Assembly (NCBI GenBank): GCA_050115425.1
Contig: JASFQN010000003.1
Coordinates: forward strand, 1 to 35,012
Origin: Gammaproteobacteria bacterium
GTDB taxonomy: Bacteria; Pseudomonadota; Gammaproteobacteria; Natronospirales; JASFQN01
Direction of reading: 5' to 3'
DNA: 35,012 nucleotides
Below the pieces are notes generated by a model that had not been told where the DNA came from, searched no databases, and saw only the letters and a program-made list of their open reading frames with translations. The position numbers and the translations under genes are program-made. Shown piece after piece: positions 1-32,623 of this stretch; within the stretch, counting starts at the first letter, position 1; every line of letters starts with the position of its first letter.

Positions 1-245
1 GCGTCGATGAAGATGCCCTTGTCCTCCATGCCGGTGTAGTCGCCGAAACGGAAGGCGTCTTCGCCAATGTAGCCGAGTCCGGCGCCGACATCGCCGAACC
101 AGCCGGTGGGGAACACGCAGTACTTGCATTCCCAGCCGGAGGTATCGGGTTGATTGCTGTTGTTGTCCGATTCCGCTGCCGCGGCGGCGCCACCCGCCGC
201 GAGTGCCAGCGACATCAGCCCCAGGAGAATCGCTTTCCTGTTCAT
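1..245 (-). CDS. mtrB: MtrB/PioB-family decaheme-associated outer-membrane beta-barrel, N-terminal part (truncated by window edge)
   Basis: Not in the ORF track. Manual translation from ATG at 245 gives MNRKAILLGLMSLALAAGGAAAAAESDNNSNQPDTSGWECKYCVFPTGWFGDVGAGLGYIGEDAFRFGDYTGMEDKGIFID. It has a signal peptide, the W-x-CxxC motif and an FGDYTG motif typical of the MtrB N-terminus, a GGGAG-like RBS, and lies directly downstream of mtrA. Confidence 0.9.
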   Translation of the reverse strand, partial: MNRKAILLGLMSLALAAGGAAAAAESDNNSNQPDTSGWECKYCVFPTGWFGDVGAGLGYIGEDAFRFGDYTGMEDKGIFID

Positions 246-279
246 TTCCCTGCTCCCGTTGATCCCCGTCCTTCGGCCG

Positions 280-1278
280 TCAGCGTTGCAGCGTGGCGCC
301 GGAAGGGCTGTTCGAGCCATGCACCTGCGAATGACAGTTCAGACAACTGCCGCCGAGCAGGAACCCGGAAGGCATCCCCTGCCCCGGCAGCCCCGAGGGC
401 CCCTGGGCGATGCTGGGATGCCCCGCCGGCGAGTGACAGCTCTGGCAGAGCAGTGGCGCCTGGCGCGTGAGCATGGCGGGATGATTGGAGCCGTGCGGTG
501 AATGGCACAGCGTGCAGTCTTCCGAAGCCGGCTCGTGCTCCCAGAGGAACGGCCCGCGCTTGTCGGCGTGGCAGGTGTAGCAGGTCTGGTTCACCGTCGC
601 CTTGGTGAGGAGTTCGGGTCCGGTGGAACCATGCGGCGCGTGGCAGTCCGTACAGGCCATGTCGCCCTGCCGGACCGGATGCGCCGAAGCCTTGAACATG
701 TCGGTCCGCACATCCTTGTGGCAGGTGAGACAGACCTTGGGCTGCTCCGACTTGACCAGCACCGGGTCCTTCTCCGCATGGATGGTGTGGCAGCTCACGC
801 AGGCGATGTCCTCGCGCTGGTGAGTACTGCCATGCCACTGCATGAGCTGGTCGCCCTTGTGGCAGTTGGTGCACACCGCGTTTTCCTCGGCCACGCTGGC
901 CGGGGATTTGCTGCCGAAGAACGGAATCGGCGGCCGCGGCTGGCCCGGATGCAGACGCTTGGTATGGTCGCCGCCCGGACCGTGGCAGGTCTCGCATTGC
1001 AGATGGGCGAAAGGCGTTCTTTCGTCGGCCTTCACCGCATGCGGGGTCTTGAAGATGGAAAAGACCGGGTACTCGGAGTCCTGGTCGTGGCACCTGATGC
1101 AGGTGTCCGCTCCCTTGCGCGAATACTCCGGCGACCCGGCGCCCTGATCGGCCGCCTGCGCCGGAGCGATCGCTCCGAGAACCAGACACGCTGCCCCGAT
1201 GAGCAGCAGTCCGGTCCGGGTGCCTGCCCGGCGGGCGGCCCCCGGCCCTGCTGCCTTCTGCGAAGGTATCCCCTGCAT
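280..1278 (-). CDS. mtrA: MtrA/DmsE-family periplasmic decaheme cytochrome c
   Basis: Ten CxxCH motifs (CIRCH, CETCH, CTNCH, CVSCH, CLTCH, CTDCH, CYTCH, CTLCH, CQSCH, CLNCH), signal peptide, YSRKGADTC start, GPFLWEHEP, and C-terminal HGSNSPSG. Confidence 0.95.
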   Translation of the reverse strand: MQGIPSQKAAGPGAARRAGTRTGLLLIGAACLVLGAIAPAQAADQGAGSPEYSRKGADTCIRCHDQDSEYPVFSIFKTPHAVKADERTPFAHLQCETCHGPGGDHTKRLHPGQPRPPIPFFGSKSPASVAEENAVCTNCHKGDQLMQWHGSTHQREDIACVSCHTIHAEKDPVLVKSEQPKVCLTCHKDVRTDMFKASAHPVRQGDMACTDCHAPHGSTGPELLTKATVNQTCYTCHADKRGPFLWEHEPASEDCTLCHSPHGSNHPAMLTRQAPLLCQSCHSPAGHPSIAQGPSGLPGQGMPSGFLLGGSCLNCHSQVHGSNSPSGATLQR

Positions 1279-1318
1279 TTGGCTATCCGCCTTGTTGGTT
1301 GTTGTTTCCGACCGGGTT

Positions 1319-1353
1319 CCGGTCAGGCCCTGCCCGGGGCAGGACCTGACCGG
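1319..1353 (-). other. Intercistronic stem-loop between mtrC and mtrA
   Basis: CCGGUCAGGUCCUGCC-CCG-GGCAGGGCCUGACCGG on the mRNA strand: 16-bp stem with one G-U pair. No U-tract follows, so a stabilising or processing element is more likely than a terminator. Confidence 0.7.
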
Positions 1354-1360
1354 TTGCCCC

Positions 1361-3640
1361 TCACTCCTTGATGCCGTGCATGACCTTCACATCGGCAATC
1401 GCACCCGGACCGTGGCAGACCGCGCAGGTCTCGGTGACGGTGCCATCGTCGAGGAACTGCTGGAGCGTGGCGAAGCTCCCGCCGTTCTGGGTCATGTGCG
1501 TCTTCGTGAGCGTATCGTCATGACAGGCCGAGCACGCCGCCGCCGTGGGCGAGATCACATCGTCATCGGTGTGATCCTGCGCGGCCGCCAGCGGAATGAA
1601 GTCGCTGGTACCGAAGGGCGAAGCCGTGTTCACCGTGGCCTGCGTGTTCACCGTGGTACCCAGGACGTTATCGGCCAGCGGCAGTTCGTACGTTCCCGAG
1701 CGGTGACAGATCTCGCACTGGTTGAGCTCTCCCGGGAAGCGGACATCGGCAAAGTCATGGAAAGAGTTGCCGAAGCCGTAGACCGTGAAGTCCTCCTGCC
1801 GCATGCCGGCACCATGGATCGCATGAATCAGATACTTGACATCGATCTGGCGCTGCTCGATGCCATCGGTTGCCGCCGTGTTGATGCCATTGACCGTGCC
1901 ATCCGGATCCGCCGGGCGCATGGCCAGGTCGGTGTTCCTCGGATTGTGGCACACGGCGCAGAGCTGGACATTGTCCACACGGTTGCCACCGTGCATGGCC
2001 AGACCGTCGTTGGTGCCGTGGCATTTCTCGCACTTGGCCACATCCACCACTTCCCGTCGCGGCGTCGGCGTGGCATCGGTAATGGCGAAGAATTTCACCA
2101 CGCTGGTCACCGGGATGCGATCAGTGTAGGTGCCATCGCCGTCCAGGTCGGCCGCGGGATGACCTTCGAAGCCCACTGCACCGGATCCTGTAGCCGTGGT
2201 CGGGATAGGCGTGGGTGAGGTCAACGTGTAGGTGCCATCGCCATTGGCCGTGCCGTTGGCCACCGCATCGATGCTGATCGGCAACGCCGGATAGGATCCC
2301 GAGTCCGTATTGGTGTAGTCCGTCGTACTCCAGGCAATATCCAGATAGATCCGGCTGTTGCTGCCCGAGGTGAAGGGCGCCGTGCTCAGGTCGTACGGTG
2401 CATCGTTGTTGGTGGGATCCGTAATCGAGTAGGTAATCGTCGGCGACTGGCCCGGAGCCGTGTTCTGGATACTGATGATGTTGTACTTGAACTTGGCTGC
2501 CGCAACCTTGGTGCCGATCATGTGAACCTGGGGCACGCTGCCGGCCACACGGCCGTCCGCGTGGCAGACGGTGCAGGACGAGTTGTCCGTGACCACGCCA
2601 CCCGGATGCCCGCCCGGAATTCCCGCGGCGAAATCCACGTCGTCGTGGCACGCCCCGCAGGCCGCCATGTTGGGCTGCTCGGCGTACTTGATGGCGTCCG
2701 GCGTGTTCGGATTGTCGGGGTCGTGGCAGGTGGTGCAGTTACGCACATCCTGCGGGAAAGCCACATCCGAAAAGTCGTGCGCACTGTCGCGATAGCCGTA
2801 GATCACGTAGCTGCCGCCCGCCTGAACGCTGGGCAGGTTCTCGCCGTCGTGGATCTTGTGGATCATCACCTTGAAATCGACAGTATTGCCGCTGTTGGCA
2901 TCGGTCGTGCCCTTGTTGTGGCAGGTCTCGCACATGCGCACATCCTTGCGCGGGCCGCCGTGGGCTTCCAGCTCGGTGTGACAGTTGTTGCAACTGGCGG
3001 TCTCCACGATGGCGTCTTCCGGAATTCCGGTGGTCTTGCCGGTGGAGGGCTGGAAGGTGTAGATGCCATTGTTGTTGACGGTCGGGCCGTCATCCCAGCG
3101 GATTGCCAGCGCGACGCGCTGGGTCAGGGTCGGGTCGTAGTCCACCGCCACGGGGCTTGTGACATTGGTGATGTCGACGCCCATGGTATAGGTGTAGGTA
3201 CCGTCACCGTGGTTGACCAGCGTGCCGCCGGAATCCGTCGTCGCCTGCACCTCGTCCTGTGTGCCGGGTCCGACGCCGTTGGCGACCTCGATCGTGTTGT
3301 TGTAGTTCTGCCAGTGGTCGGGATCGCCGTTGGTTCCGGGAATCAGCTCGGCAACGGTGACTTCCAGCACGCCGTCCGGCAGGAAGGCATACCCCAGCCC
3401 GTCCTGATCGGTGAGCTTGAAGTCCACCGTGGAGGTGGCTCCCAGACTGACCTTGGTGATTGCGATGTTGAGGGAATCGGCCTTCTGGCTGATCGGCTGC
3501 CCGGGGGTTCCGGGATCGCCCTGCGCGCCCTGGGGACCCTGTGGACCAGTATCTCCCGTGGGACCGCAGCCTGTGAGAAGTAGAAGAATGCCGGCACAGA
3601 TTACACCGGCCAGTGACCCGAATCGTGCTGCCCTGCTCAT
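1361..3640 (-). CDS. mtrC: MtrC/OmcA-family outer-surface decaheme cytochrome c lipoprotein
   Basis: Lipobox LLTG-C. Ten CxxCH motifs in two blocks of five, separated by heme-free beta-rich domains (GDGTYTY motifs). First gene of mtrCAB. Confidence 0.93.
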   Translation of the reverse strand: MSRAARFGSLAGVICAGILLLLTGCGPTGDTGPQGPQGAQGDPGTPGQPISQKADSLNIAITKVSLGATSTVDFKLTDQDGLGYAFLPDGVLEVTVAELIPGTNGDPDHWQNYNNTIEVANGVGPGTQDEVQATTDSGGTLVNHGDGTYTYTMGVDITNVTSPVAVDYDPTLTQRVALAIRWDDGPTVNNNGIYTFQPSTGKTTGIPEDAIVETASCNNCHTELEAHGGPRKDVRMCETCHNKGTTDANSGNTVDFKVMIHKIHDGENLPSVQAGGSYVIYGYRDSAHDFSDVAFPQDVRNCTTCHDPDNPNTPDAIKYAEQPNMAACGACHDDVDFAAGIPGGHPGGVVTDNSSCTVCHADGRVAGSVPQVHMIGTKVAAAKFKYNIISIQNTAPGQSPTITYSITDPTNNDAPYDLSTAPFTSGSNSRIYLDIAWSTTDYTNTDSGSYPALPISIDAVANGTANGDGTYTLTSPTPIPTTATGSGAVGFEGHPAADLDGDGTYTDRIPVTSVVKFFAITDATPTPRREVVDVAKCEKCHGTNDGLAMHGGNRVDNVQLCAVCHNPRNTDLAMRPADPDGTVNGINTAATDGIEQRQIDVKYLIHAIHGAGMRQEDFTVYGFGNSFHDFADVRFPGELNQCEICHRSGTYELPLADNVLGTTVNTQATVNTASPFGTSDFIPLAAAQDHTDDDVISPTAAACSACHDDTLTKTHMTQNGGSFATLQQFLDDGTVTETCAVCHGPGAIADVKVMHGIKE

Positions 3641-3683
3641 GACCGCGCTCTCCCCTGCGGTTGCTTGTGTTGTTTTCCGCCTT

Positions 3684-3770
3684 CGGAACCCCTGATCCAG
3701 TCATGCAGTGCCAGGTGGGACGCTGTTCCATGCGTGGCAGAACATGTGCATGGCTGGATCAGAGGTCCCG
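3684..3770. repeat. 87-nt imperfect inverted repeat (long hairpin) upstream of mtrC
   Basis: Arms 3684-3707 and 3747-3770 pair at 21 of 24 positions. Inner stems TGCCA/TGGCA (3709-3713/3735-3739) and TGGGA/TTCCA. Confidence 0.75.
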
Positions 3771-3818
3771 TCCTTCCAGGCTCGGGGGCCATGAGACCAT
3801 ATCAGGTGCCGATTCCAG

Positions 3819-3832
3819 TTGATCTGCATCAA
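3819..3832. promoter_or_regulatory. FNR/CRP-family (FNR/Anr/Dnr-type) binding site between divergent mtrC and diheme cytochrome genes
   Basis: TTGAT-CTGC-ATCAA is a perfect FNR consensus. A -10-like TACCTT at 3856-3861 starts about 30 nt from the box centre, as expected for a class II promoter on the + strand. Confidence 0.85.
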
Positions 3833-3949
3833 CTCCGCCGGACCTTGTAATGAGCTACCTTTTGCACTGAAGATCCTCTCAGGAGGCAGGGAAGAACGAA
3901 CAAGCCTCACGGGAGCGGCAACAAGGACCATCAAGCGCGGGAGACAACC

Positions 3950-4567
3950 ATGTTCAAATCGACTCTTAGTACCCTGGCGGCCGTGGCACTGCTCGCCTTC
4001 GCCGGCTCGGCCATGGCGGGAGATGTGCCCGACGCAGCCAAGACCTGCTTCGACTGTCACGGCGAAAGCGGCGTAAGCAAGCACGAACACATCCCCACCA
4101 TCGCCGGCATGTCTTCCTGGTATCTCGAGGGCCAGATGCAGGCCTACCAGAAGGGCGACCGGCCCTGTGAGAAGATCAAGAACCCCACCGACGCTTCCAA
4201 GGGCGAAGAGGACATGTGCGATATCGCCAAGAAGCTGAGCGGTGACGAGATCACCAAGGTGGCGGAATATTTCGCCGGAGAGACGTTCGTACCCGCCAAG
4301 CAGACCTTCGATGCCGACAAGGCGGCGCTGGGCAAGAAGGTTCATGAACTGGAATGCGAGAAATGCCATTCCGAGGGCGGCTCCTACGCGGACGACGACG
4401 CCGGTATCCTCGCGGGCCAGTGGATCCCCTACCTGAGGCTCACCTTCAAGGAGTACGAAAGCGGCAAGCGCGTGATGCCCGAAAAGATGAAGCCCAAGAT
4501 GGACCAGCTCACCCCGGAACAGACCGAGGCGCTCATCCAGTACTACGCCAGCGAAGGCGCCAAGTAA
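3950..4567 (+). CDS. Periplasmic diheme cytochrome c (c4/FccA/PdsA-like shuttle)
   Basis: Sec signal ending AMA. Two CxxCH motifs (CFDCH, CEKCH), each followed by a c4-like PxIAG/ILAGQ..YL motif and a distal Met. RBS GGGAG. Confidence 0.88.
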   Translation: MFKSTLSTLAAVALLAFAGSAMAGDVPDAAKTCFDCHGESGVSKHEHIPTIAGMSSWYLEGQMQAYQKGDRPCEKIKNPTDASKGEEDMCDIAKKLSGDEITKVAEYFAGETFVPAKQTFDADKAALGKKVHELECEKCHSEGGSYADDDAGILAGQWIPYLRLTFKEYESGKRVMPEKMKPKMDQLTPEQTEALIQYYASEGAK

Positions 4568-4580
4568 CAGGGAGCCAACC

Positions 4581-5192
4581 ATGTCCGACGACAAGCCTGA
4601 CGGCAACAACAACAGCCAGCCGGGGCTCTGGTCACGCATCTGGCGCCAGCCGCGCCGGCGCTGGCTGCTGGGCATCCCGCTCGGCGGTCTGCTTGCCTTT
4701 CTCGTAGGCATCATGTTCTGGGGCGGTTTCAACACCGCCCTTGAACATACCGAGAGCCTGGCATTCTGTACGTCCTGCCATGACATGCAGGTGCCGTTCG
4801 AGGAGTACAAGCAGAGCATCCATTACACCAACGAAGCCGGCGTGCGTGCCGTGTGCAGCGATTGCCACGTGCCGGAAGGCACCTTCGCCCGCATCTGGCG
4901 CCATGTGAAGGCCAGCAAGGAAGTATGGAGCCATTTCACCGGCAAGATCGGCACGCCCGAGAAATACGAGAAGCACCGTGCGGAAATGGCGGCCAAGGTG
5001 GAGGCGGAAATGCGTGCAGACAATTCCGCCGGCTGTCGAAAATGCCACAGCTGGGATGCCATGAAACTCTCTGAACAGGGTCACCAGGCGGCCAAGAAGC
5101 ATTCGCCCGCGTGGCGCGAACGAACCGGCGATACGTGCATCGACTGTCACAAGGACGTCGCGCACCATTTGCCGAAGCCATCGGAACTCTGA
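4581..5192 (+). CDS. NapC/NirT-family tetraheme quinol dehydrogenase (CymA-like)
   Basis: One N-terminal TM helix (GIMFWGGFNTALEHT) and four CxxCH motifs (CTSCHDM, CSDCHVP, CRKCH, CIDCH). The first has the CxxCHxM NapC/NrfH signature. Confidence 0.93.
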   Translation: MSDDKPDGNNNSQPGLWSRIWRQPRRRWLLGIPLGGLLAFLVGIMFWGGFNTALEHTESLAFCTSCHDMQVPFEEYKQSIHYTNEAGVRAVCSDCHVPEGTFARIWRHVKASKEVWSHFTGKIGTPEKYEKHRAEMAAKVEAEMRADNSAGCRKCHSWDAMKLSEQGHQAAKKHSPAWRERTGDTCIDCHKDVAHHLPKPSEL

Positions 5193-5200
5193 GCCTGCAA

Positions 5201-5227
5201 CTGCCGGCGGCGCAATGCCGCCGGCAG
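5201..5227 (+). terminator. GC-rich stem-loop after the napC-like gene (weak terminator or mRNA stabiliser)
   Basis: CTGCCGGCGGC-GCAAT-GCCGCCGGCAG, a perfect 11-bp stem with only a poor U-tail (CTCCTTGT). Confidence 0.5.
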
Positions 5228-5240
5228 CTCCTTGTCACTG

Positions 5241-5693
5241 ATGCCCCGTTTCCACACCGCCAGAGAACTGCCCTACCCGCCCGAACGGCTCTTTGATCTG
5301 GTGATTGATGTGGAAGGCTATCCCGTTTTCGTCCCCGGCTACCATCGCGCCTGGATACTTGAGCGCGGCGAGGATTTTGTCGACGTCCGCCAGTCGGTTG
5401 GCTTCGACGGCTTGCGCATCGAGTATCGCTCGATCGCACACTTCAGGCGGCCGGACTGGATCACCATCAACAGCGAAGACGCGCCCTTTCGCCGACTTCA
5501 TACCGAGTGGCGCTTCATCCCGCACCAGGGTGGCTGTCGCGTGGACTGCTCAGTGGACTGGCAATTTCGCAGCATCGCGCTCGGGATGGTGGCCGGCCCC
5601 ATACTGGCCGGCATCTCGAGACGCATGGTCGAAGCATTTGTCACGCGGGCCGCCGCAGCCGATCAGGACCGCCCGCCCCCCGCTAGCCGATGA
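5241..5693 (+). CDS. Coq10/RatA (PasT)-family START-domain protein, putative quinone-binding
   Basis: LPYPPERLFDLVIDVEGYPVFVPG, PFRRLHTEWRF and MVEAFVTRA match the Coq10/RatA pattern. Start taken at ATG 5241 (the ORF track starts at TTG 5232). Confidence 0.85.
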   Translation: MPRFHTARELPYPPERLFDLVIDVEGYPVFVPGYHRAWILERGEDFVDVRQSVGFDGLRIEYRSIAHFRRPDWITINSEDAPFRRLHTEWRFIPHQGGCRVDCSVDWQFRSIALGMVAGPILAGISRRMVEAFVTRAAAADQDRPPPASR

Positions 5694-6591
5694 GAATACC
5701 CAATGCCGTCAACACCAGCGTTGCCATGATCACGCCCACATTCACGCCCATCCATGGCACCAGCCGATCCAGGTCGTCGGCATACCGGATCACGGACCGG
5801 GCCAGCACCACGGCAAGCGGTAGTGGCGCGAGTCCGATCAACGCCCATATCGGAAACAGCCCCGCCACCACGCCACCGATCAGCGTCAGGTAAGCCGCGA
5901 GGAGAAAGCCGGCGAATATCCATGCGCTGGGCTGTCGCCCCAGCACGATGGGCAAATGCCGCCGACCGGCTTCCCGGTCGGGCTCAACGTCGGGAAACTG
6001 ATTGAGCAGCAGCAGCTCGCCGACCAGGAAGAACGGCATCAACGACACCACGAAGGCGGCCCACGTGTAGGTTCCTGTCAGAGCAAAGCCGGTCCCCATG
6101 ACCATCAGCGGGCCGAAGCCGAGACCCGGCGCAAGAAGGCACAATAACGGATGGCGGGTAATCCACACGGTGTACACGGCCACCACGAGCAGGCCGACCA
6201 GGCCCAGGGGTAACAGCGCCAGGCCGCGCTCCGACAGAAAGTAGACGCCCACACCCGCTGCCAGGCCGAGGGTCACTATGCCCGCGTTCAAGGTCGCGGT
6301 CGCCGCTTCGGGATGCTCGGGCAACGTACCGCTGCCACCGCTGAAGGGCGTGCGCTTCGCCATGAGATCCAGCCCGCTCCTGAAGTCGCTGTATTCGTTC
6401 AGCAGGTTCACGCTGGCATGCGCGGCAAGCGCGCCGAGCAGGGCGAAAAACGCATCCGCCCAGCGTACCGCGGCACCCCGGTGTACGACGATCGCAAGAG
6501 CCAGGAAGATACAGACCGGCGTCAGAACGAGAAAATTGAGGCGCAGCGCGCCCAACAGATAACGCATGTTTTTCATGCGGTTATGCTCCAT
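5683..6591 (-). CDS. menA: UbiA-superfamily prenyltransferase, MenA-like (DHNA polyprenyltransferase)
   Basis: Multi-TM protein with Asp-rich motifs NEYSDFRSGLD and NQFPDVEPD and RTPFSGGSG. Last gene of the hydrogenase operon. Confidence 0.8.
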   Translation of the reverse strand: MEHNRMKNMRYLLGALRLNFLVLTPVCIFLALAIVVHRGAAVRWADAFFALLGALAAHASVNLLNEYSDFRSGLDLMAKRTPFSGGSGTLPEHPEAATATLNAGIVTLGLAAGVGVYFLSERGLALLPLGLVGLLVVAVYTVWITRHPLLCLLAPGLGFGPLMVMGTGFALTGTYTWAAFVVSLMPFFLVGELLLLNQFPDVEPDREAGRRHLPIVLGRQPSAWIFAGFLLAAYLTLIGGVVAGLFPIWALIGLAPLPLAVVLARSVIRYADDLDRLVPWMGVNVGVIMATLVLTALGILIG

Positions 6592-6604
6592 TTCTCATTC
6601 GATT

Positions 6605-7207
6605 TCAGGAAGAGACGGCGACCGACTCCGTATGTTCCGCGCCTGCGACCCAGCGTTGCGCGGCCCGCGCTACCCGGCGGCCCAGATGCTCGGCCGTGAG
6701 TCGGTCGCTGGCGGGCGGCACGGCCTCCGGCCCCTCGTCGATGTTGGACTGGGCCATGGCGCCCATCCAGCCTCCCAGGCGATTGAGTTCGTCGGCCGTG
6801 GAGTCTCTGGTTTCGTTGCCGCCCAGCAGGCCGAGGCTGATCCAGTGCATCCCGTGCTGAGCCGCGAACGCCACCATGTCCATCAGTGTATTGAGCTTGT
6901 CACCGCTCATGCTGCCGGAGTTCGTGAAGCCCGCGGCGAGCTTGCCATCCCAGGCCTGCTGGAAAAAGCGCTCCGCGGTCGCTTCCATGACTTCCTTCAA
7001 TCCCGCCGAGACACTGCCCATGTAGGTCGGCGCGCCAAAGATGATCGCATCCGACCGGTCCAGCACGTCCCAGTGTCGCTCGATCTCGGCGACCTGGATC
7101 AGATGCACTTCCGTACCGGGGACACTTTTCGCGCCCTTCTCGACCGCTTTTGCCTGTACTTGCGTGTGGCCGAAGCCACTGTGATAAAGAATTGCCACGC
7201 AGGCCAT
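6605..7207 (-). CDS. WrbA-like flavodoxin-fold protein (putative NAD(P)H:quinone oxidoreductase)
   Basis: YHSGFGHT FMN phosphate loop, IIFGAPTYMGSVS, WDGKLAAGFTNSG..SGDKLNTL. Strong RBS GGAGGAGAGG. Confidence 0.85.
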   Translation of the reverse strand: MACVAILYHSGFGHTQVQAKAVEKGAKSVPGTEVHLIQVAEIERHWDVLDRSDAIIFGAPTYMGSVSAGLKEVMEATAERFFQQAWDGKLAAGFTNSGSMSGDKLNTLMDMVAFAAQHGMHWISLGLLGGNETRDSTADELNRLGGWMGAMAQSNIDEGPEAVPPASDRLTAEHLGRRVARAAQRWVAGAEHTESVAVSS

Positions 7208-7273
7208 TCGTCCTCTCCTCCCTGAAACAAGGGCTTTCTTTCAGGAACGGCCGCCGGGCTCCGGCGACTCGCG

Positions 7274-8245: not shown

Positions 8246-8249
8246 GGCC

Positions 8250-14104: not shown

Positions 14105-14118
14105 ATGACCCAGATCAA
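14105..14118 (-). promoter_or_regulatory. FNR-type box upstream of the hydrogenase operon
   Basis: TTGAT-CTGG-GTCAT on the minus strand, with one perfect half-site. A weak -10-like TTCACT (14082-14077) is at class II spacing. Confidence 0.6.
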
Positions 14119-14169
14119 GTGCCGGCAAGTTGTCGGAACCTCCTTCCCGGCGGCGCGATCGCCACCGCT

Positions 14170-14210
14170 TTGACCTGTGTCAACTGCCCCGGATGCACGG
14201 GTGGTAGTTT
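14170..14210 (+). promoter_or_regulatory. FNR-type box plus extended -10 upstream of hypA
   Basis: Palindromic TTGAC-CTGT-GTCAA (14170-14183). TG-G-TAGTTT at 14202-14210, with the hexamer starting about 29 nt from the box centre. Confidence 0.72.
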
Positions 14211-25156: not shown

Positions 25157-26543
25157 CGGTCGCGCCCGACGCAGCGAGATGCCGCGCAATCTGCTCGTCG
25201 CTCAAACGGCTCAGCTCCCCGGCGGGCAGCATGGCAAGCAGATTCCAGCCGATGTCGAGGCTTTCCTCAAGCACGCGTGCTCCCTCCTGGTGGACGAAGT
25301 CGCGTTCAAAGGCGTTGCCAAAATCCAGATAGAGGCGGTCGCCCGCCGGCAGGCCTTCCTCGCCGACCACCTTGGCCAGCGTGCGTATCTGATTGGCCCG
25401 GGCATAGGCCGCATAGAGCTGGCTGGCCAGCGCCGGGTGGTCGGCATCGGTATAACCCTCGCCAATACCCTGGTCGATCAGCCGCGAGAGACTCGGCAGC
25501 ACCGAGACCGGCGGGTAATAGCCGCGACGGTCCAGTTCGCGGTCGAGCACGATCTGGCCTTCGGTAATGTAACCGGTCAGGTCGGGAATCGGATGGCTGA
25601 TGTCGTCTCCCGGCATGGTGAGTACCGGAAGCTGGGTGAGCGTGCCTTCACTGCCGCGGAGGCGGCCGGCCCGTTCGAACAGGGTCGCCAGATCCGAGTA
25701 CATGTAGCCGGGATAGCCCTTGCGCCCGGGCACTTCGCCGTGGCTCGCCGAGACCTCGCGCAGGGCCTCGCAGTAATTGGTCATGTCGGTCATCACGACC
25801 AGCACGTGGCGGTGCTCGCCAAAGGCGAGGTATTCGGCGGCAGTCAGCGCGTACCGGGGAGTCAGCAGACGCTGAGTGCTGGAATCGCTGGCCAGATTGA
25901 GAAACAGCGCGGTGTGCTCCAGCGCCCCGCTCTCCTCCATGGCACGGCGAAACGCCTCCGCGGTCGTGTGCGACACACCGATGCCCGCAAACACTATGGC
26001 GAATCCACCCGCCTCGTCGCCCAGCAGGCGGGCATGGCGCGTGATATCCACAGCCATGCGGGCGTGGGGCAGCCCGCCGCCGGAAAAGATCGGCAGCTTC
26101 TGTCCGCGCACCAGGCTGTTGAGCACGTCGATGCTGCTGATGCCGGTCTCGATGAAAGCCGTGGGCAGATCCCGAGCCACAGGATTGAGTGGCCACCCGC
26201 CCACCGGACGTTCTTGATGAATCGGAACCGGTGGGCCGCCGTCCAGCGGGCGTCCCACACCGTCAAAGACGCGTCCGAGCAGACCGGGCCCCACACCGAA
26301 GTGCAACGATTCACCGGAAAAGCGCACCCCTGTGCCCGCAAGCCCGAGATTGGCGGTGGGTTCGAGCACTTCGACAACCATGCGTCGTTCGTCCAGTGCG
26401 GCCACGCGCCCGGGACGCGCGGCGCCGTCCGCGCCGATCACTTCCACGGCTTCGTTGAGACCCACCGACAGGACCCGCTCCAGGAACAGCAACGGCCCCT
26501 CGATGCGCGTCGCGGCCCGCTCGGCCAGCATCTCAATCGCCAT
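25149..26543 (-). CDS. ntpB: V/A-type ATPase subunit B
   Basis: Start MAIEML at 26543. ETGISSID, RGQKLPIFSG, DMTNYCEALREVS, GYPGYMYSDLA, HPIPDLTGYITEGQI, SLSRL. Confidence 0.96.
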   Translation of the reverse strand: MAIEMLAERAATRIEGPLLFLERVLSVGLNEAVEVIGADGAARPGRVAALDERRMVVEVLEPTANLGLAGTGVRFSGESLHFGVGPGLLGRVFDGVGRPLDGGPPVPIHQERPVGGWPLNPVARDLPTAFIETGISSIDVLNSLVRGQKLPIFSGGGLPHARMAVDITRHARLLGDEAGGFAIVFAGIGVSHTTAEAFRRAMEESGALEHTALFLNLASDSSTQRLLTPRYALTAAEYLAFGEHRHVLVVMTDMTNYCEALREVSASHGEVPGRKGYPGYMYSDLATLFERAGRLRGSEGTLTQLPVLTMPGDDISHPIPDLTGYITEGQIVLDRELDRRGYYPPVSVLPSLSRLIDQGIGEGYTDADHPALASQLYAAYARANQIRTLAKVVGEEGLPAGDRLYLDFGNAFERDFVHQEGARVLEESLDIGWNLLAMLPAGELSRLSDEQIARHLAASGATDG

Positions 26544-28308
26544 CGCCCGAAGCCTCCTGCGTGACGGCTGTTCCGCCCGATTCCAGTGCGGTGTCCATTT
26601 CCCCGCGCAACGCGGCGAAGCGGTCCAGATGGTCTTCGCCGATCTCCTCGCCCATGCGCCGCAGGCGGCGCAAGAGCGGCAGTGATGCAATATCGGCAAC
26701 AGCCATCCCGCCGGCCAGCGCGGCCTCGGCACTGTCCATGAAATGCACGAGGGTGCGCATCATCTCGATCTGGCGATCCGGGGATGTATAGCAGTCCACT
26801 GGCGAAAATGCCGACTGCCGCAGGAAGGCCTCATTGAGCAAGTCAGCGAACAACAGTGTGAGTTGCTGGCGGGCCGGCAGGGCGTCGCGACCAACGATGC
26901 GCACCATGCGCTCCAGATGCGCCTGCTCTTCCAGCAGCGCCAGGAAACGATGCCGCTGTTCCTGCCGGTCCGCGTGGCCGTGGGCGCGCCACCAGCCTGC
27001 CAGGTCGGGGGCGTCCTCCGAATAGGCGCCCAGGGGATTGATCGCGGGATAGAAACGCGCGCGTGCCCGGTCACGGTCGAGCGGCCAGAAACAACGTACA
27101 TTGCGTTGGGTATGCAACGTGACCGGCTCGGAGAAATCACCGCCCGGCGGGCTCACGGCACCGATCAGCGTCACCGAGCCCTCTTCCCCGGACAGGGTCC
27201 GGACCCGCGCGGCCCGTTCATAGAATTCCGCCTTGCGTGTGCCGAGATAGGCCGGGTACCCGCCTTCCGCGGGCAACTCGCCCAGGCGACCGCCTATCTC
27301 GCGCAACGCTTCCGCCCAGCGACTGGTGGAATCCGCCATCAGCGCGACATGCAGCCCCTGGTCCCGGAAGTACTCGGCGACCGTGACGCCGGTATAGATG
27401 CTCGCCTCCCGGGCCGCCACCGGCATGTTGGAGGTATTGGCAATAATCACCGAGCGTTCGATCAGCGGCCGTCCGGTGCGTGGGTCCTCAAGGGACGGAA
27501 AGTCATGCAGGACTTCGGTCATCTCGTTGCCGCGCTCTCCACAGCCCACATAGACGATCACATCGGCGTCGCACCACTTGGCGATGCTCTGCTGGAGAAT
27601 GGTCTTGCCGGTGCCGAAGCCACCCGGCATGGCGGCACGACCGCCGCGCGCGACCGGAAACAGCGCATCGATGATTCGCTGGCCCGTCAGAAGCGGCGCA
27701 TCCGGCGGCAGACGCTCGGCGACCGGACGCGGCATGCGCACCGGCCAGCGCTGCCGCAGGCTGACAGCGGTCGGCTCGCCCTCGCCGGTGTCCACACGGC
27801 AAATCACTGCATCGGCGGCATAGCGCCCCGGCGGCACGATGTCCACGACCCGGCCGGCCAGACCTGGCGGCACCAGGCAAAGCTGGTCGCGTCCACCCTC
27901 ACCCGGGAGGATGCGCCCGAGCACTTCGCCGCCGGTCACGGCGCGGCCGGTTTCAAGCAGCGGCTCGCAATCGAACTCGGCCGCGCGTGAGGGCTGCATT
28001 CCCACCTGCACGTGGAGGTTCTCGGCAGACAGGGGCCGCAAGAGTCCGTCGAAGATGCCACCAAGCAGCCCGGGATCGAGCGGTACCGACAAGGCTCGGC
28101 CGGTGCCCGCAACCGGATCGCCGAATCGCAGGCCCGTGGTGTCTTCATAAACCTGGACGGTGATCGTCTTGCCCGCCACACGGAGAACTTCGCCAAGCAG
28201 GCGCTGCTCGCCTACGTGCACTTCCTCGCTGACGCGGAAAGACTGCTCGCTGATCGCGGTCAGCACGGGGCCACCGATCGAGGTGATGCTTGCGCGCGCG
28301 CCGCTCAT
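26533..28308 (-). CDS. ntpA: V/A-type ATPase catalytic subunit A
   Basis: QVYEDT, Walker A GGFGTGKT, GCGERGNEM, NTSNMPVAAREAS, DSTSRWAEALRE, SPPGGDFSEPVT. Confidence 0.97.
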   Translation of the reverse strand: MSGARASITSIGGPVLTAISEQSFRVSEEVHVGEQRLLGEVLRVAGKTITVQVYEDTTGLRFGDPVAGTGRALSVPLDPGLLGGIFDGLLRPLSAENLHVQVGMQPSRAAEFDCEPLLETGRAVTGGEVLGRILPGEGGRDQLCLVPPGLAGRVVDIVPPGRYAADAVICRVDTGEGEPTAVSLRQRWPVRMPRPVAERLPPDAPLLTGQRIIDALFPVARGGRAAMPGGFGTGKTILQQSIAKWCDADVIVYVGCGERGNEMTEVLHDFPSLEDPRTGRPLIERSVIIANTSNMPVAAREASIYTGVTVAEYFRDQGLHVALMADSTSRWAEALREIGGRLGELPAEGGYPAYLGTRKAEFYERAARVRTLSGEEGSVTLIGAVSPPGGDFSEPVTLHTQRNVRCFWPLDRDRARARFYPAINPLGAYSEDAPDLAGWWRAHGHADRQEQRHRFLALLEEQAHLERMVRIVGRDALPARQQLTLLFADLLNEAFLRQSAFSPVDCYTSPDRQIEMMRTLVHFMDSAEAALAGGMAVADIASLPLLRRLRRMGEEIGEDHLDRFAALRGEMDTALESGGTAVTQEASGDGD

Positions 28309-28973
28309 TGCGCTTCCCCTGCCGCGCGCTGCCCGGGCGCGGTGCGCAGGCGCTGCTCGATGCGCCCCAGCAGCAGGCCCTTGAGATGCTGCTCACGCCC
28401 CATGAGTGCCGCCACGCTCGCATCGAGGCAGGCCTTGCCTGCACGCAAGCGGTACCCGGCCTGCAAATCCGTCAACGCACGCATGGTCAGCGTGACATCC
28501 GGCCGCTGTTCGGCGACCGATTCAGGCACCGACCAGTGGTGCTCCGGCTGCGCGTCTTCGGGATGTTCCAATACCCAGTCGCCATCGGGGAGTCGGTCAA
28601 CAGCCAGGCGAAGCAGGCCATCGAGCCATTGGCGGCGCGCCGCCCCATCACGCCAGCGCCGTGCCAGTTCCTTGTCGAGTTGCTGCCAGGCGCGCTCCAG
28701 GTAGTTCAACTGCAATTCCTGCCGACGGTGACGCAGGGCGGCCTCGGCCGTGGCCCGCGCATGCGCCAGTTCCCGGGCTCGATGGGCGCGCTGCTCACGC
28801 ACTGTCTGTCGAATACGCGCATGCGCCCGGCGGCGCGCCTCGGCCAGCATGCGCGCGCGTTCTCCTTCGGCTTCCTCGAGCAGACCGGTGCGCCTTTCCC
28901 GCCGCACCCGCCCGATATGCTCAAGCAGTGCCTCAGTGGCATTATCGGCGACGGGTGCCTCGGGCCGGGTCAT
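28305..28973 (-). CDS. ntpE: V/A-type ATPase subunit E (peripheral stalk)
   Basis: Coiled-coil N-half with a C-terminal LQAGYRL..CLDAS motif. Positioned between F and A. Confidence 0.75.
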   Translation of the reverse strand: MTRPEAPVADNATEALLEHIGRVRRERRTGLLEEAEGERARMLAEARRRAHARIRQTVREQRAHRARELAHARATAEAALRHRRQELQLNYLERAWQQLDKELARRWRDGAARRQWLDGLLRLAVDRLPDGDWVLEHPEDAQPEHHWSVPESVAEQRPDVTLTMRALTDLQAGYRLRAGKACLDASVAALMGREQHLKGLLLGRIEQRLRTAPGQRAAGEAQ

Positions 28974-29269
28974 TGGGCCACTCCCAGATCCTGGCGAATG
29001 CGCCGCACCTCATCGGCGGCCCGCACGTCGCCGGCGAGTCCGGTCATCACCAGGATCGGTGGTCGCGCCGCCAGTTGGCGGCGATACAGAAAAGCCGGCG
29101 TCACCGCCTGCGCGCAATCCGCGCCAAGCAGGATGACGGAAGGCGGGTCAGCGAGGACTTCCCGAAGCACGGTCTCGGCAACGGCGGGGGCAGCTATCCG
29201 CACCGCAACGCCGGCGAGGCGGAATCCCGTGGCGGTCAACTCGTCACCGATGAACAGCGGACCGTCCAT
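28970..29269 (-). CDS. ntpF: V/A-type ATPase subunit F
   Basis: IGDELTATGFRLAGV and C-terminal IRQDLG; 99 aa. Confidence 0.9.
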   Translation of the reverse strand: MDGPLFIGDELTATGFRLAGVAVRIAAPAVAETVLREVLADPPSVILLGADCAQAVTPAFLYRRQLAARPPILVMTGLAGDVRAADEVRRIRQDLGVAQ

Positions 29270-29270
29270 G

Positions 29271-29627
29271 TCAGCCCAACCGGTCCAGGATGAGGATGGA
29301 CACGATCAAACCGTAGATGGCGATGCCTTCCGCCAGGCCAACCAGTACCAGGACGCGGCCGAGCAGTTCCGGACGCTCGGCCAACGCGCCCATGCCGGCG
29401 CTGCCGACCATCGCCACCGCATATCCCGCAGCCAGCGCGGATACCCCGGTGGACGCGGCGGCCGCCGCAAAACCCCATTTCATGACCACCGGATCGACAA
29501 CGGCCCCTGCCGCGGGCGCGGCGGCGAAAGCTTCGGGCAGCCATAGCACGACGCTGGCCAGCGCCACGAGCAGGCTTGTCGCAAGGATGGCGAAAAGCGT
29601 GATTTTCAGATGCTGTGCCGGTTGCAT
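29271..29627 (-). CDS. ntpK: V/A-type ATPase proteolipid subunit K/c
   Basis: Start MQPAQH at 29627 with GGAGGGAG RBS. Hairpin GALAERPELLG..GLAEGIAIYGL carries the ion-binding Glu. Confidence 0.93.
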   Translation of the reverse strand: MQPAQHLKITLFAILATSLLVALASVVLWLPEAFAAAPAAGAVVDPVVMKWGFAAAAASTGVSALAAGYAVAMVGSAGMGALAERPELLGRVLVLVGLAEGIAIYGLIVSILILDRLG

Positions 29628-29652
29628 GGAAGCTCCCTCCTCGACCGGTGGT

Positions 29653-31479
29653 TCAATGGGCAAACGGCGGAGGTGACGGCTGGAACGGACGCCCCTCCGC
29701 ACGCAGGAATCGGATGAAGAATTCGAACAGGATCAAACGCGTGGTCTGGACGAAGACCACCAGACCTTCCAGGAACAGGACACCCAGGTTGCCGACAATC
29801 AGCACCAGGAGCATGCCTGCGGGATGCTCTATCGAGCGCGCCAGGCTGACCACGGCGAGTGAGAGCCCCGCATGGGCCAGCGCGAATGCGCCCACACGAA
29901 TGAAGGAAAGCGTGTTGACGGCCAGTTGCAGAAGCCGTTCGAGTATTTCGCCCATGCTTCCCAGCACCACGGCGATTCCGTGGTGCCGGTGTTCCCAGGC
30001 GCAACCGCCCAGGTACCACAAAAGCCCGGCCGCCACGGTCCAGAGACCCGGGACCAGCCGCCATACCGCCAGCATCCCACCTGCGTAGAGCGTTACCAGG
30101 CCAGCTTCGATCCGCCACCACGTGCCGCCCTGCCCGCCCCAGCGCGCCGCCAGTCCGTTGAGCAGCAAGCCAAACAGGATCAGGACCGCACCGCCGGCGA
30201 TGGGTACGAACAGTACCGGCAGGGGCTGCGTGACCGGATGGACCCACAGCGCGGGAATGATGTCTTCGAGGCAGAAGACACTGCCGAAGAGCACGCCGAA
30301 CAGAATGGCCATGAGGCCGCCCGGAATGAGCATGCCCAGCGCCGGCCAGCGGCGCCAGAGAAACAGGCCGGCGACAAGCAGCACCGCGCCCTGACCAACG
30401 TCGCCGAACATGTAACCAAACAGCAAGGGGCCGATCACGGCCAGGAGCCGGCTGGGATCGGCCTCATTGCCCCCTGGCGTGCCCATCAGACGCACGAACA
30501 GCTCGAAAGGCCGCGCCCAGGGCGGATTGTCGCTCAGTGTGGGCGGCACCCGGTCCGCCGGCGGCGCGGGAAAGCCGACCACCGCGGGAATGCCCGCTGC
30601 CTTGAGGGTACCCAGCAGGCGCCTGCCGGACGGATCCGAAGTCCAGCCATCCAGGCGCGCCAGGTAGTCACTGACCGCCGCGCCTTCGAGATGCTCGAGA
30701 CGCCATTGCAGCCGTCGCACCCGGCCAAGTGCCTCGGCAATGCCGAAGCGTTCGCCCAATTCCACCAGCGCCGCGTCGATTTCCGCCAACCTTCGAGCCG
30801 CCGACTCGCGGCGCTCCTCGACCGCACGCAGCGCCTGCAGAGGCGGGCCCGCCAGCCATTCGGGCAGCGCGATTCGGCGCGATCCGTGGCCGCCGGCCCC
30901 CTGGCCGAATTCCGCTACTGCCGTGTCGCGCCCGAGGACCAGCAGCCAGGTGTGCTCGGCGGTATCCACCCGCCGACGGATCACTGCGTCCGCGGGCATG
31001 GGCACATGCGCCTCCGCCGGCAGCATGAACAGCGCCGCCGCCAGTGGCGGACGGGTTCGCACAACGCGTCCGAAATCCGGCTCGGGCGAATCACCCAATG
31101 CTTCGAGAAAGCGTGCCAGTGGCGCCAGTTCCTCACGTCGCATTTCGAGCGCGGCGGCTTCTTCGATCAGAGGTGCGGCCTCGCGCTCCCAGTCCCGCAG
31201 CGGCTGGAGGACTTCGACCAGCGCTTCGTCCAGGGCCTTCCCCTCATCGGACGGCGCCACTTCGCGTGGACGGGGCCAGGCATTTCCGCAGCGCTCACGG
31301 ATTTCGGCGAATTCGTCGAGTCCGTTGCGAATCGCACTCAGATCCAGGGCCCGCTCCACCGCGCTGCCAGGCTCAAGTTCCACGAGCCCGGTATCGGCCA
31401 GCAGTTCCGCCGCGCGTCCGGCCTTGGGCGCGGGAACCAGCACCTCGAACCAGCGCGCGCTGCGGGTACGCAGGGCCAT
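29653..31479 (-). CDS. ntpI: V/A-type ATPase subunit I/a
   Basis: Start MALRTRSARWF overlaps the subunit C stop. PPTL..PFE..EADP, FGYMFGDVGQG, NTLSFIRVGAFALAH (essential Arg), RLILFEFF. Confidence 0.94.
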   Translation of the reverse strand: MALRTRSARWFEVLVPAPKAGRAAELLADTGLVELEPGSAVERALDLSAIRNGLDEFAEIRERCGNAWPRPREVAPSDEGKALDEALVEVLQPLRDWEREAAPLIEEAAALEMRREELAPLARFLEALGDSPEPDFGRVVRTRPPLAAALFMLPAEAHVPMPADAVIRRRVDTAEHTWLLVLGRDTAVAEFGQGAGGHGSRRIALPEWLAGPPLQALRAVEERRESAARRLAEIDAALVELGERFGIAEALGRVRRLQWRLEHLEGAAVSDYLARLDGWTSDPSGRRLLGTLKAAGIPAVVGFPAPPADRVPPTLSDNPPWARPFELFVRLMGTPGGNEADPSRLLAVIGPLLFGYMFGDVGQGAVLLVAGLFLWRRWPALGMLIPGGLMAILFGVLFGSVFCLEDIIPALWVHPVTQPLPVLFVPIAGGAVLILFGLLLNGLAARWGGQGGTWWRIEAGLVTLYAGGMLAVWRLVPGLWTVAAGLLWYLGGCAWEHRHHGIAVVLGSMGEILERLLQLAVNTLSFIRVGAFALAHAGLSLAVVSLARSIEHPAGMLLVLIVGNLGVLFLEGLVVFVQTTRLILFEFFIRFLRAEGRPFQPSPPPFAH

Positions 31480-32201
31480 CACACGTCCCCACTCCGACCC
31501 GGCAGCAGACGGCGTTGCACCAGCAGCCCGCGCAAGTGTGCGTGGTCCAGCCAGGCGAGGCCGATGAAGGCAATCACCGCTGCCGGCCCGGGTGCCTGAC
31601 GACGGAAGACATGTCCCCACCGCGCGGCCAGCACAAGCTCTGGCTCGTCACCGGCGACTGCGCCGGCGCCGGCGCCGAGCCGGCGATATTGGGCAAGCGC
31701 GTGCTGTTCGAGCAAGGTGAGTTGAGCGTGCCAGCGATTTGGCATCGCCGGCCATTGCGCATGCCAGCGACGACGCCAGGCCTCGACCACGGCTGCGCCG
31801 CGCAGGTCACGGGCCAGCCAGGACGGCGGCTTTTCGCTTCCCGCCGCATCGGTGAGCCATGCCGGCGCGGTCGCATCGGCTGCCAGCGCCTGCAGTGCGG
31901 GCAGTTCGGGGAGGCGGGCCAGCCAGGTCACCGCAGGGCGCCACTCGCGGGGCAGCCAGCGGGCAATCTCGGTGATCAGTTGGCGGAAATGTTCCCGGAC
32001 CAGCGACTCCACAGTGTGGGCATCGTCACGCCCCGACAGCCGCCCCGCCAACCGGCCGAATGCGGTATCCCGCAATGACTGGATGAGCGCGGCAAGGGAA
32101 TCCGTCGCGGCCAGGCGCTCCCAGGCAGAGCCGGGCCTCTGGCTGTAGCGTGCCTGCAGGCGGGCCTGGGCGTAGGCGAAACCGGCCAGCGGCGTGTTCA
32201 C
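31479..32201 (-). CDS. ntpC: V/A-type ATPase subunit C/d (short, divergent)
   Basis: FAYAQARLQAR N-terminal motif and LRDTAF. Lies directly upstream of subunit I. Confidence 0.7.
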   Translation of the reverse strand: MNTPLAGFAYAQARLQARYSQRPGSAWERLAATDSLAALIQSLRDTAFGRLAGRLSGRDDAHTVESLVREHFRQLITEIARWLPREWRPAVTWLARLPELPALQALAADATAPAWLTDAAGSEKPPSWLARDLRGAAVVEAWRRRWHAQWPAMPNRWHAQLTLLEQHALAQYRRLGAGAGAVAGDEPELVLAARWGHVFRRQAPGPAAVIAFIGLAWLDHAHLRGLLVQRRLLPGRSGDV

Positions 32202-32551
32202 GGCCGGCCGTCCCGGGTACCACCGGTCAGGACAAGCGCCAGATCCGCGGCGGCCGTCGAGGCCGCTTCCTCATCGAAAGGCACATCCTGAAGGGATCGA
32301 AGACGCTGCTCGCCTGTGCGCAGAATAGCTTCCACCTGCCGGGCCGTCTGTCGCCGAGCTCCTTCCTCGACGCGCGCGGCGCGCGCCTCGCCCCGGGCGA
32401 GCATCCCGTGGACTTCGCTACGGGCCCTGGCAACCAGATCGCGCGCCTCTTCCATGGCAGCCGCAACATCAGCCTCGGCGGCAGCCTCCGCCTCGAGGAT
32501 GCGGACGATGGCTTCGCTGGCTTCGAATCCTCCGGTGTCCGCGCCACGCAT
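32198..32551 (-). CDS. V/A-type ATPase subunit G/H-like peripheral stalk protein
   Basis: Start MRGADTGG at 32551 with GGGAGGG RBS. Ala/Glu/Arg coiled coil (RILEAEAAAEADV..EEAR). First gene of the operon. Confidence 0.7.
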   Translation of the reverse strand: MRGADTGGFEASEAIVRILEAEAAAEADVAAAMEEARDLVARARSEVHGMLARGEARAARVEEGARRQTARQVEAILRTGEQRLRSLQDVPFDEEAASTAAADLALVLTGGTRDGRP

Positions 32552-32582
32552 GCTGACCCTCCCTGGGTATGGGCCTCTGCCG

Positions 32583-32623
32583 AGCGTAACGGACACCGCA
32601 AGGGGCCCGTTGACTTGCATCAA
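32583..32623 (-). promoter_or_regulatory. FNR-type box and -10 upstream of the V-ATPase operon
   Basis: TTGAC-TTGC-ATCAA at 32610-32623 (one mismatch to consensus). A -10-like TACGCT on the minus strand at 32588-32583 starts about 29 nt from the box centre. Confidence 0.75.

Follow-up and report, generated by a model that had tools for sequence, protein, structure and literature searches.

The window analysed here is an entire contig (C3; 35,012 bp) of a gammaproteobacterial genome (G000; 2.6 Mb in 271 contigs, 91% complete, 0.19% contaminated), and its G+C content of 65% lies inside the range of that genome. It carries an Isp-type [NiFe] hydrogenase gene cluster next to an mtrCAB-pdsA-cymA module for extracellular electron transfer (EET) and a V/A-type ATPase operon. 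Genes were called from Pfam and NCBIfam profiles, open reading frames (ORFs) and counts of CXXCH motifs; all gene starts are quoted as maximal ORFs. Every gene family named in an earlier note on this DNA was confirmed in place by these means, and genes missed there were added (i.e. hupH, the hupD protease gene and a gene for a ferric-reductase/NOX-like flavocytochrome).

The hydrogenase genes lie on the minus strand in the order hydS-isp1-isp2-hydL. The large-subunit gene, hydL (8250-9992), matched NiFeSe_Hases at 775.6 bits and encodes both Ni-Fe binding motifs (RICGVC and DPCLACAVH) and a 15-residue cleavable C-terminal extension. The small-subunit gene, hydS (11993-13081; NiFe_hyd_SSU_C, Oxidored_q6), encodes a twin-arginine translocation (Tat) motif, SRRTFLK, and a hydrophobic C-terminus. 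Judged by these motifs, the hydrogenase looks intact. The best solved relative of HydL was 3myr_B (913 bits; next match 4c3o, 744 bits), which we take to be the Hyn enzyme of Allochromatium vinosum. Between the two subunit genes (13081-8250) are isp1 (11332-11991), for a predicted membrane b-type cytochrome anchor (TmcC 92.9 and HmcE 88.2 bits, under cut-offs; weak Nitrate_red_gam match), and isp2 (10007-11335), for an HdrD/DsrK-like Fe-S protein (CCG and Fer4 domains; DsrK 203 and TmcB 199 bits, under cut-offs). On the nearest relative of HydL and this gene order the enzyme is read as group 1e-like (i.e. Isp-type), the trees described below covering only the relatives collected for this analysis. 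Maturation genes follow: hupH (13086-13610; HupH_C, 96 bits) and a hupD/HycI-type protease gene (13511-14128; HycI, 74.8 bits) on the minus strand, and, divergently on the plus strand at 14231-21867, hypA, hypB, hypC (15440-15697), hypD, hypX (16730-18541; Formyl_trans_N/C and ECH_1), hypF and hypE, all called by Pfam. A NiCoT nickel transporter gene (7274-8245, minus strand; NicO, 187 bits) adjoins hydL.

The Mtr module begins at the contig edge. On the minus strand, mtrC (1361-3640) encodes an outer-surface decaheme lipoprotein with 10 CXXCH motifs, an LLTGC lipobox-like N-terminus, an OmcA-like_N match and MtrC/MtrF domains (Mtrc-MtrF_II-IV_dom, PF22113, 200.6 bits), and mtrA (280-1278) a periplasmic decaheme cytochrome with 10 CXXCH motifs (Paired_CXXCH_1, 133 bits). 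Of the mtrCAB genes listed in the earlier note, mtrB is present only as an N-terminal 106-aa fragment (3..320, minus strand) that follows mtrA, runs off the contig start and has a signal-like N-terminus and a CKYC motif. This fragment had no Pfam match, and no other MtrB_PioB match was found in the 91%-complete genome. It is called mtrB on the basis of its position and its likeness (32–57% by tblastn) to the ORF after mtrA in genomes G017, G032 and G004, the G017 ORF scoring 462 bits for MtrB_PioB. On the plus strand, divergent from mtrC, are genes for a signal peptide-bearing periplasmic diheme cytochrome c (3950-4567; 2 CXXCH) and for a putative CymA-like NapC/NirT tetraheme quinol dehydrogenase (4581-5192; 4 CXXCH, N-terminal transmembrane helix). 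The best NCBIfam match of the diheme protein was PdsA (NF049874), covering positions 5–197 of the 198 in the profile; with 176.5 bits it stays under the cut-off of 330, and its heme count and position suggest a PdsA-like role without placing it in that family. The CymA-like protein scored 213 bits for TIGR02161 napC_nirT (cut-off 310.6), a general NapC/NirT model that is not CymA-specific.

The ATPase operon (24518-32551, minus strand) comprises nine ORFs: D, B, A, E-like, F, K (29271-29627), I, C-like and a small coiled-coil ORF (32198-32551). Subunits D, B, A, F, K and I scored above Pfam cut-offs, which places the enzyme among the V/A-type ATPases; the E-like and C-like ORFs gave weak matches of 16.6 and 15.3 bits. 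Subunit K forms one hairpin that carries a lone glutamate, preceded by an N-terminal hydrophobic segment. This form is known from ATP-synthesising A/V enzymes.

Conservation of the arrangement was examined in 66 species genomes of the order, G000 included, all of which were searched for MtrC, HydL and the ATPase A subunit VatA. MtrC was found in nine genomes, HydL in six and VatA in three, and the carrier sets were nested: all VatA genomes carried HydL and MtrC, and all HydL genomes carried MtrC. The carriers span three families (f1, f5 and f7) and four of them share one genus, so that they are not independent events. In G017, a genome of four contigs from another family, the entire arrangement is kept over ~37 kb at 30–78% amino-acid identity, in the order V-ATPase ... 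hyp-hupDH-hydS-isp1-isp2-hydL-UbiA1-SRPBCC-cymA-pdsA-mtrCAB (UbiA1 and SRPBCC being a prenyltransferase and a lipid/quinone-binding protein, described below). The hydrogenase, UbiA1, SRPBCC, pdsA and mtrCAB genes are retained in G032.

The linkage was then assessed without reference to Mtr, using 80 metagenome contigs selected by HydL similarity only (72–83% identity) and classed by the identity of their Isp2 to that of the window. Among the 32 contigs with Isp2 identity of at least 60%, 18 had at least 6 kb of sequence downstream of hydL and 15 of these 18 carried cymA and mtrC there, although many of the metagenome contigs derive from few record series and the counts overstate independence. 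The gap from hydL to mtrC was mostly ~2.6 kb, and two of the three contigs lacking cymA-mtrC were borderline in Isp identity. For the 39 contigs with Isp2 identity below 60%, mtrC was found in none of the 19 informative contigs and a V-ATPase was found instead in three. Contig L126 illustrates the linked state, with hydL, a TIGR04190 B12-radical-SAM gene, cymA, mtrC-mtrA-mtrB (mtrB being complete here, at 356 bits), then a small ORF followed by a MenA-like UbiA gene. Isp2 is conserved at 65–69% identity within the Mtr-linked subclade. The class also differed in hypX, which was present in 12 of its 32 contigs as compared to none of the 39 others.

Phylogenies agreed with this division. All 21 Mtr-adjacent rows of the Isp2 tree fell inside one clade of 38 of the 81 rows (Shimodaira–Hasegawa-like approximate likelihood ratio test support of 100), and these loci represent 18 clusters at 95% and eight at 90% HydL identity. 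The seven HydL proteins from Mtr-bearing genomes formed one clade (97/96), while the hydrogenase-adjacent MtrC proteins were split over three separate clades. In a class-wide sample of 400 genomes (tallies of 50/399, 25, 18, 9/10 and 5/11 were counted by hand from result tables), a close HydL was present anywhere in the genome for 5 of 11 other MtrC carriers as compared to 50 of 399 genomes overall; in one of the sampled genomes, G234, HydL and MtrC are 76 kb apart. The hydrogenase–Mtr link is far beyond chance, and the hydrogenase with its cymA/mtr module is a conserved genetic unit and not an isolated juxtaposition. The strongest new result is this distinct subclade of Isp-type hydrogenases that is syntenic with cymA-mtrCAB in many uncultured lineages. 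This part of the single-island reading in the earlier note is supported.

The V-ATPase was followed in the same class sample. At least 55% identity to VatA was found in 25 genomes of the class sample, and 18 of these 25 also had a close HydL (50/399 overall). Both genes were on one contig in ten genomes, 4–18 kb apart in nine of the ten; the neighbourhoods belong to several families and vary in orientation. Genes conserved between the two blocks were sought and rejected, the ORFs of nine spacer regions having almost nothing in common. Throughout the class the V-ATPase is linked to Isp hydrogenases without Mtr, and in G070 it is linked to the hydrogenase with the mtr cluster on another contig. 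The V-ATPase linkage is wider than, and separate from, the hydrogenase–Mtr linkage, and both are superimposed on this contig and in G017. The V-ATPase is best understood as an Isp-hydrogenase accessory, which in this island also happens to stand beside Mtr. The same pairing is known from Riftia symbionts, in which V-type ATPases and a group 1e hydrogenase are expressed together when sulfide or O2 is limiting and the F1-ATPase tracks the Calvin–Benson–Bassham cycle and the cbb3 oxidase (PMC11636981, in the passages available). There the evidence is expression in one symbiont, whereas here it is physical adjacency in several families, gene adjacency being unmentioned in those passages (PMC11636981). 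The neighbourhood described here gives genomic backing to the symbiont co-expression and allows tests of what bacterial V-ATPases do in low-energy H2 metabolism.

Other arrangements were observed around Isp hydrogenases. In G234 (contig C5, L094-L097; noted regions 284586-299000 and 343009-348900), two tandem V/A-ATPase operons lie 18 kb from an Isp hydrogenase, and mtrCAB-pdsA-cymA is ~45 kb further. In L092 (G198:C2, 8995-11762), genes for a NapC-family cytochrome (NapC/NirT N-terminal and c3-type domains), a c7-type cytochrome, UbiA and SRPBCC adjoin hydL; G198 has a V-ATPase 18 kb away and no MtrC match, and this looks like a different periplasmic outlet for such a hydrogenase.

Shared regulation of the modules was examined through FNR-type sites, the FNR consensus being TTGAT-N4-ATCAA. 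With this consensus, 11 sites with at most two mismatches were found on the contig as compared to 5.4 expected, and none of 100 shuffles reached 11. The sole perfect site (TTGATCTGCATCAA, 3819..3832) is within the 309-bp divergent region between mtrC and pdsA. Two boxes with two mismatches each (14105..14183) lie in the hupD/hypA divergent region, and a box with one mismatch (32610..32623) lies ~60–70 bp upstream of the first V-ATPase ORF; another one-mismatch site falls inside the gene for the SRPBCC protein. Both orthologous intergenic regions (hypA/hupD and pdsA/mtrC) of G017 and G032 hold pairs of boxes with no or one mismatch, with counts of 3, 3 and 6 against 0.47, 0.54 and 0.65 expected. 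G000 encodes an FNR-like protein (169.9 bits, under the equivalog cut-off of 228) with a C-x2-C-x5-C N-terminus and an ETVSR recognition helix. In this lineage, the hyd/hyp and pdsA/mtrC promoters are probably switched jointly by an FNR-type O2 sensor. A sigma-70 and terminator scan of the contig was uninformative: no site looked promoter-like, and the 16 terminator-like sites compare with 11.9 expected. Contigs assembled from four RNA libraries (at most three samples) were identical in every letter to mtrC, pdsA and cymA where they matched, and a few contigs from some of the runs matched pieces of hydS/isp1, hupD and hypA-D/X; DNA carry-over is possible in these matches, which do not prove transcription, and contig depth cannot rank the genes. 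Stretches of positions 1-20000 had no such cover, including most of hydL, isp2 and mtrA, which is uninformative. The RNA-library contigs are a weak positive for expression. Four data sets labelled wetland metagenome (X1-X4) contained 0.85–0.97 of the sampled words and could hold the sample from which the genome came; the small word shares of X9-X15 are not taken as evidence on habitat.

Between the two respiratory modules, and after the hyp genes, are genes of possible quinone metabolism. These encode an SRPBCC (Coq10/RatA-like) lipid/quinone-binding protein (5232-5693, plus strand; Polyketide_cyc 82.6 bits, RatA family 62 bits, under cut-off), UbiA1 (5683-6591, minus strand; UbiA Pfam 94.5 bits), a WrbA-like flavodoxin-fold NAD(P)H:quinone oxidoreductase (6605-7207, minus strand; FMN_red, NF002999 74.6 bits against a cut-off of 141) and UbiA2 (21924-22817, plus strand; UbiA 97 bits). 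Both UbiA proteins are most like MenA and UBIAD1 (best PDB match 8djk) and both fail all MenA cut-offs, at 98 and 179.7 bits against 277. The two menA genes of the earlier note thus score best against MenA models, but far under the cut-off (98 and 180 bits). A search of the ESM Atlas with UbiA1 returned only clusters described as 'prenyltransferase family'. MenA-like genes recur in the clusters of both lineages. They adjoin cymA/mtr clusters in L126 (noted regions 11748-13508 and 20398-21378), L002, L005, L028, L034, L046, L050 and L052, and UbiA1-like matches occurred at 10 of the 80 genome loci, some of them (Pleionea and Halieaceae records) lacking a hydrogenase. In L126, the TIGR04190 gene lies between hydL and cymA; together with the recurrent UbiA it may indicate a cluster-specific prenylated cofactor. 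UbiA2 and the NOX/FRE-like gene were considered as conserved parts of the island and rejected, as neither was seen in any related locus compared.

These observations suggest an accessory, horizontally spread respiratory island of two nested, separately conserved linkages, along which electrons would flow from H2 through quinone, CymA and PdsA to MtrCAB, an account in which we place about half of our confidence. H2 would be oxidised by the Tat-exported HydSL and its electrons passed to a membrane quinone via the b-type cytochrome Isp1, giving a proton-motive redox loop. The quinol would be re-oxidised on the periplasmic face by the NapC-type CymA, from which electrons would pass to the diheme PdsA, to MtrA within the MtrB porin, to the surface MtrC and onwards to an extracellular acceptor (e.g. 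Fe(III), Mn(IV), humics or an electrode). Under the same low-oxygen, low-energy conditions the V/A-type ATPase would probably act as an alternative enzyme for ATP synthesis. Fermentation commonly releases H2 in wetlands, soils and sediments, and the major electron acceptors there under anoxia include Fe(III), Mn(IV) and humics; the recurrence of the hydrogenase–MtrCAB pairing in many uncultured bacteria suggests a ready-made pathway of H2-to-mineral respiration. If this outward account is true, these organisms would form a guild of hydrogenotrophic Gammaproteobacteria, not recognised before, that transfer electrons extracellularly as well as respiring O2, an Isp subclade adjoining cymA-mtrC would be a simple genomic marker for them, and the genes would be a compact set of bioelectrochemistry parts for an H2-fed anode or, reversed, cathodic H2.

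A number of results weigh against this account. The hydrogenase–Mtr linkage is not obligatory, as the two modules are on different contigs in G070 and also in G004, where they are at least 74 kb from a contig end. Viewed from the Mtr side, a close HydL was found in the flank of just 3 of 41 informative MtrC loci from genomes, and HydL was within 40 kb of MtrC in none of the 11 other MtrC-positive genomes of the class sample. Because linkage is common on the HydL side and rare on the Mtr side, a particular lineage of Isp hydrogenases is tied to Mtr and not the reverse. No V-ATPase was found in G004, G032 or G066, all of which carry the hydrogenase and Mtr. No FNR box with at most one mismatch was found in L126, L136 or L059, which belong to the other lineage, and none was found in the V-ATPase stretch of G017; for this reason O2 co-regulation is proposed for this order only. 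A menaquinone reading was not supported: neither MenB (TIGR01929) over its cut-off nor MqnA/D (PF02621) was found in six island-bearing genomes (G000, G017, G032, G004, G070 and G066), two of which are 96% complete. With ubiquinone alone, outward flow to most Fe(III) minerals would be uphill by established redox potentials. G000 also encodes two heme-copper oxidases, which would fit aerobic H2 use, as would HypX, whose function is in aerobic maturation. Because of the undetected men/mqn pathway, the oxidases and HypX, a menaquinone chain is weakened and there is room for inward or parallel flow. The '(mena)quinone' of the earlier note is thus not borne out, the UbiA genes also being under MenA cut-offs, and its 'self-contained' chain is not supported, as no quinone head-group pathway was found, G000 additionally encodes an F-type ATPase and the V-ATPase was not found in some carriers of hydrogenase and Mtr.

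The undetected menaquinone pathway, HypX and the two oxidases would suit an arrangement in which the hydrogenase and MtrCAB-PdsA-CymA are parallel lithotrophic inputs, a shared 'lithotrophy island' whose two arms, fed by H2 and by extracellular Fe(II), Mn(II), reduced humics or a cathode, each deliver electrons to the ubiquinone pool for O2 or nitrate respiration with no transfer between them. The direction of flow is not inferable for most MtrCAB carriers and oxidative use is cited (PMC8805035, in the passages available). We consider this arrangement unlikely: most contigs of the subclade have cymA directly between mtrC and hydL and a specific Isp1/Isp2 subtype co-varies with Mtr, a pattern that is difficult to account for unless an electron path is shared, the FNR-type boxes suggest induction or repression on loss of O2, MenA-like prenyltransferases recur in the clusters and no match to RuBisCO was found in G000. 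Inward flow through the whole chain, with uptake by MtrCAB-PdsA-CymA driving H2 evolution by the Isp complex or reduction of a cytoplasmic acceptor by Isp2, is harder still to credit and is judged very unlikely. Reduction of H+ from quinol is strongly uphill, the hyp, hupH, hupD and NiCoT genes and a Tat-exported enzyme are typical of uptake hydrogenases, and inward flow was indicated by none of the results; on the other side, group 1e enzymes are described as bidirectional and the cytoplasmic HdrD-like Isp2 is conserved in the subclade. Inward operation of Mtr is also known from laboratory settings (PMC8805035, in the passages available).

The modules might instead be neighbours merely through assembly on one mobile island, without functional coupling. 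Their patchy distribution in the order and the variable, unrelated spacers between hydrogenase and V-ATPase are what such hitch-hiking would produce, and mtrCAB/pdsA/cymA has been described as mobile with passenger genes (PMC8805035, in the passages available). Adjacency has nevertheless been kept across at least eight lineages under 90% HydL identity with differing MtrC types and gene orders, regulatory boxes are held in common, and hydrogenase–V-ATPase adjacency occurs in several families in different orientations; we regard hitch-hiking as the least probable of these alternatives.

The outward account could be reconciled with the undetected pathway by salvage. The island MenA/UBIAD1-like prenyltransferases would make a naphthoquinone from salvaged 1,4-dihydroxy-2-naphthoate (DHNA) or menadione, which is proposed because it would accommodate the absence of men/mqn genes together with the position of cymA, the Isp subtype, the FNR boxes and the MenA-like genes. 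In this speculative and rather improbable extension, the locus would be a portable, O2-switched hydrogen-to-mineral cassette, in which the Isp subclade is wired to CymA-MtrCAB in a ubiquinone-only host through its own low-potential naphthoquinone, handled by the Coq10- and WrbA-like proteins, with the paired A/V-type ATP synthase for a low-energy anaerobic mode. The idea draws on analogy with the flavin-based EET locus of Gram-positive bacteria (Listeria, Lactiplantibacillus), which likewise carries its own MenA-type prenyltransferase, DmkA, although the conduit there is wholly different and has no multiheme cytochromes. Exogenous DHNA is required for EET by L. plantarum (PMC9888254 and PMC10746273, in the passages available).

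The components and the physiology are known, and the dedicated supercluster appears undescribed. In Shewanella, H2 is an established electron donor for extracellular reduction; its hydrogenase belongs to another group and is not known to be linked to mtr. The electron path of H2-dependent metal reduction in Shewanella oneidensis (Hya, menaquinone, CymA, MtrCAB) is the one proposed here, but that organism synthesises menaquinone, whereas in the genomes studied here the supercluster is dedicated and neither a men nor a mqn pathway was detected. The Hyn/Isp (group 1e) enzymes of A. vinosum and Thiocapsa share the gene order hydS-isp1-isp2-hydL, with Isp1 HmcE/TmcC-like and Isp2 DsrK/HdrD-like here. 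The enzyme of the window differs in belonging to a separate Isp1/Isp2 subclade, in its linkage to cymA-mtrCAB instead of sulfur metabolism and in the frequent presence of HypX in its class. H2 oxidation has been found essential for Cu(II) reduction (PMC12410911, in the passages available). The mtrCAB/pdsA/cymA genes form a mobile cluster with passenger genes in Aeromonas, Vibrio and other Gammaproteobacteria (Baker et al. 2022, PMC8805035), and the module of the window has the same genes in the same order as described in the passages available, with divergent pdsA-cymA beside mtrC-mtrA-mtrB. Both pdsA- and cymA-like genes were in the flank of 23 of 80 MtrC loci in genomes. The present cluster differs in that MenA-like prenyltransferase genes, a V-ATPase and an Isp-hydrogenase/hyp block are joined to the module; the terms hydrogenase, ATPase, prenyltransferase and ubiA have no mention in the main text of that paper as far as it was available, supplements aside (PMC8805035). 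No description of the hydrogenase–Mtr linkage was found in the main texts searched, supplements and subscription journals lying outside the coverage, and no paper was found that combines 'group 1e', hydrogenase, 'extracellular electron transfer' and mtrA. The earlier note, which knew of no description of the combination as one locus, agrees with this search.

Between UbiA2 and the V-ATPase operon, on the minus strand at 23153-24475, is the gene for the ferric-reductase/NOX-like flavocytochrome b (Ferric_reduct with transmembrane heme, FAD_binding_8, NAD_binding_1; best PDB chains 8qt6 and 8qq7), which could use cytoplasmic NAD(P)H as a source of electrons for the periplasm. At the contig end (32700-34989) are genes for a major facilitator superfamily transporter, a monoheme cbb3-type cytochrome c with a His-rich acidic tail and a CsoR/RcnR-type metal-sensing repressor, which may serve the nickel/metal homeostasis of the island. 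In G017 (noted regions L083, 3-1370, and L082, 19061-19612), a multiheme-c/cytochrome-b561 fusion protein gene and a CcmE gene separate the SRPBCC gene from cymA, and HlyD/ABC transporter genes and a VIT1-rubrerythrin iron transporter gene lie between the V-ATPase and hyp genes. Finally, isp1 (11332-11991) translated out of frame still gave tblastn matches of 37–47% in relatives; homologous DNA of high G+C content can match in the wrong frame, which calls for caution with synteny maps built by tblastn.

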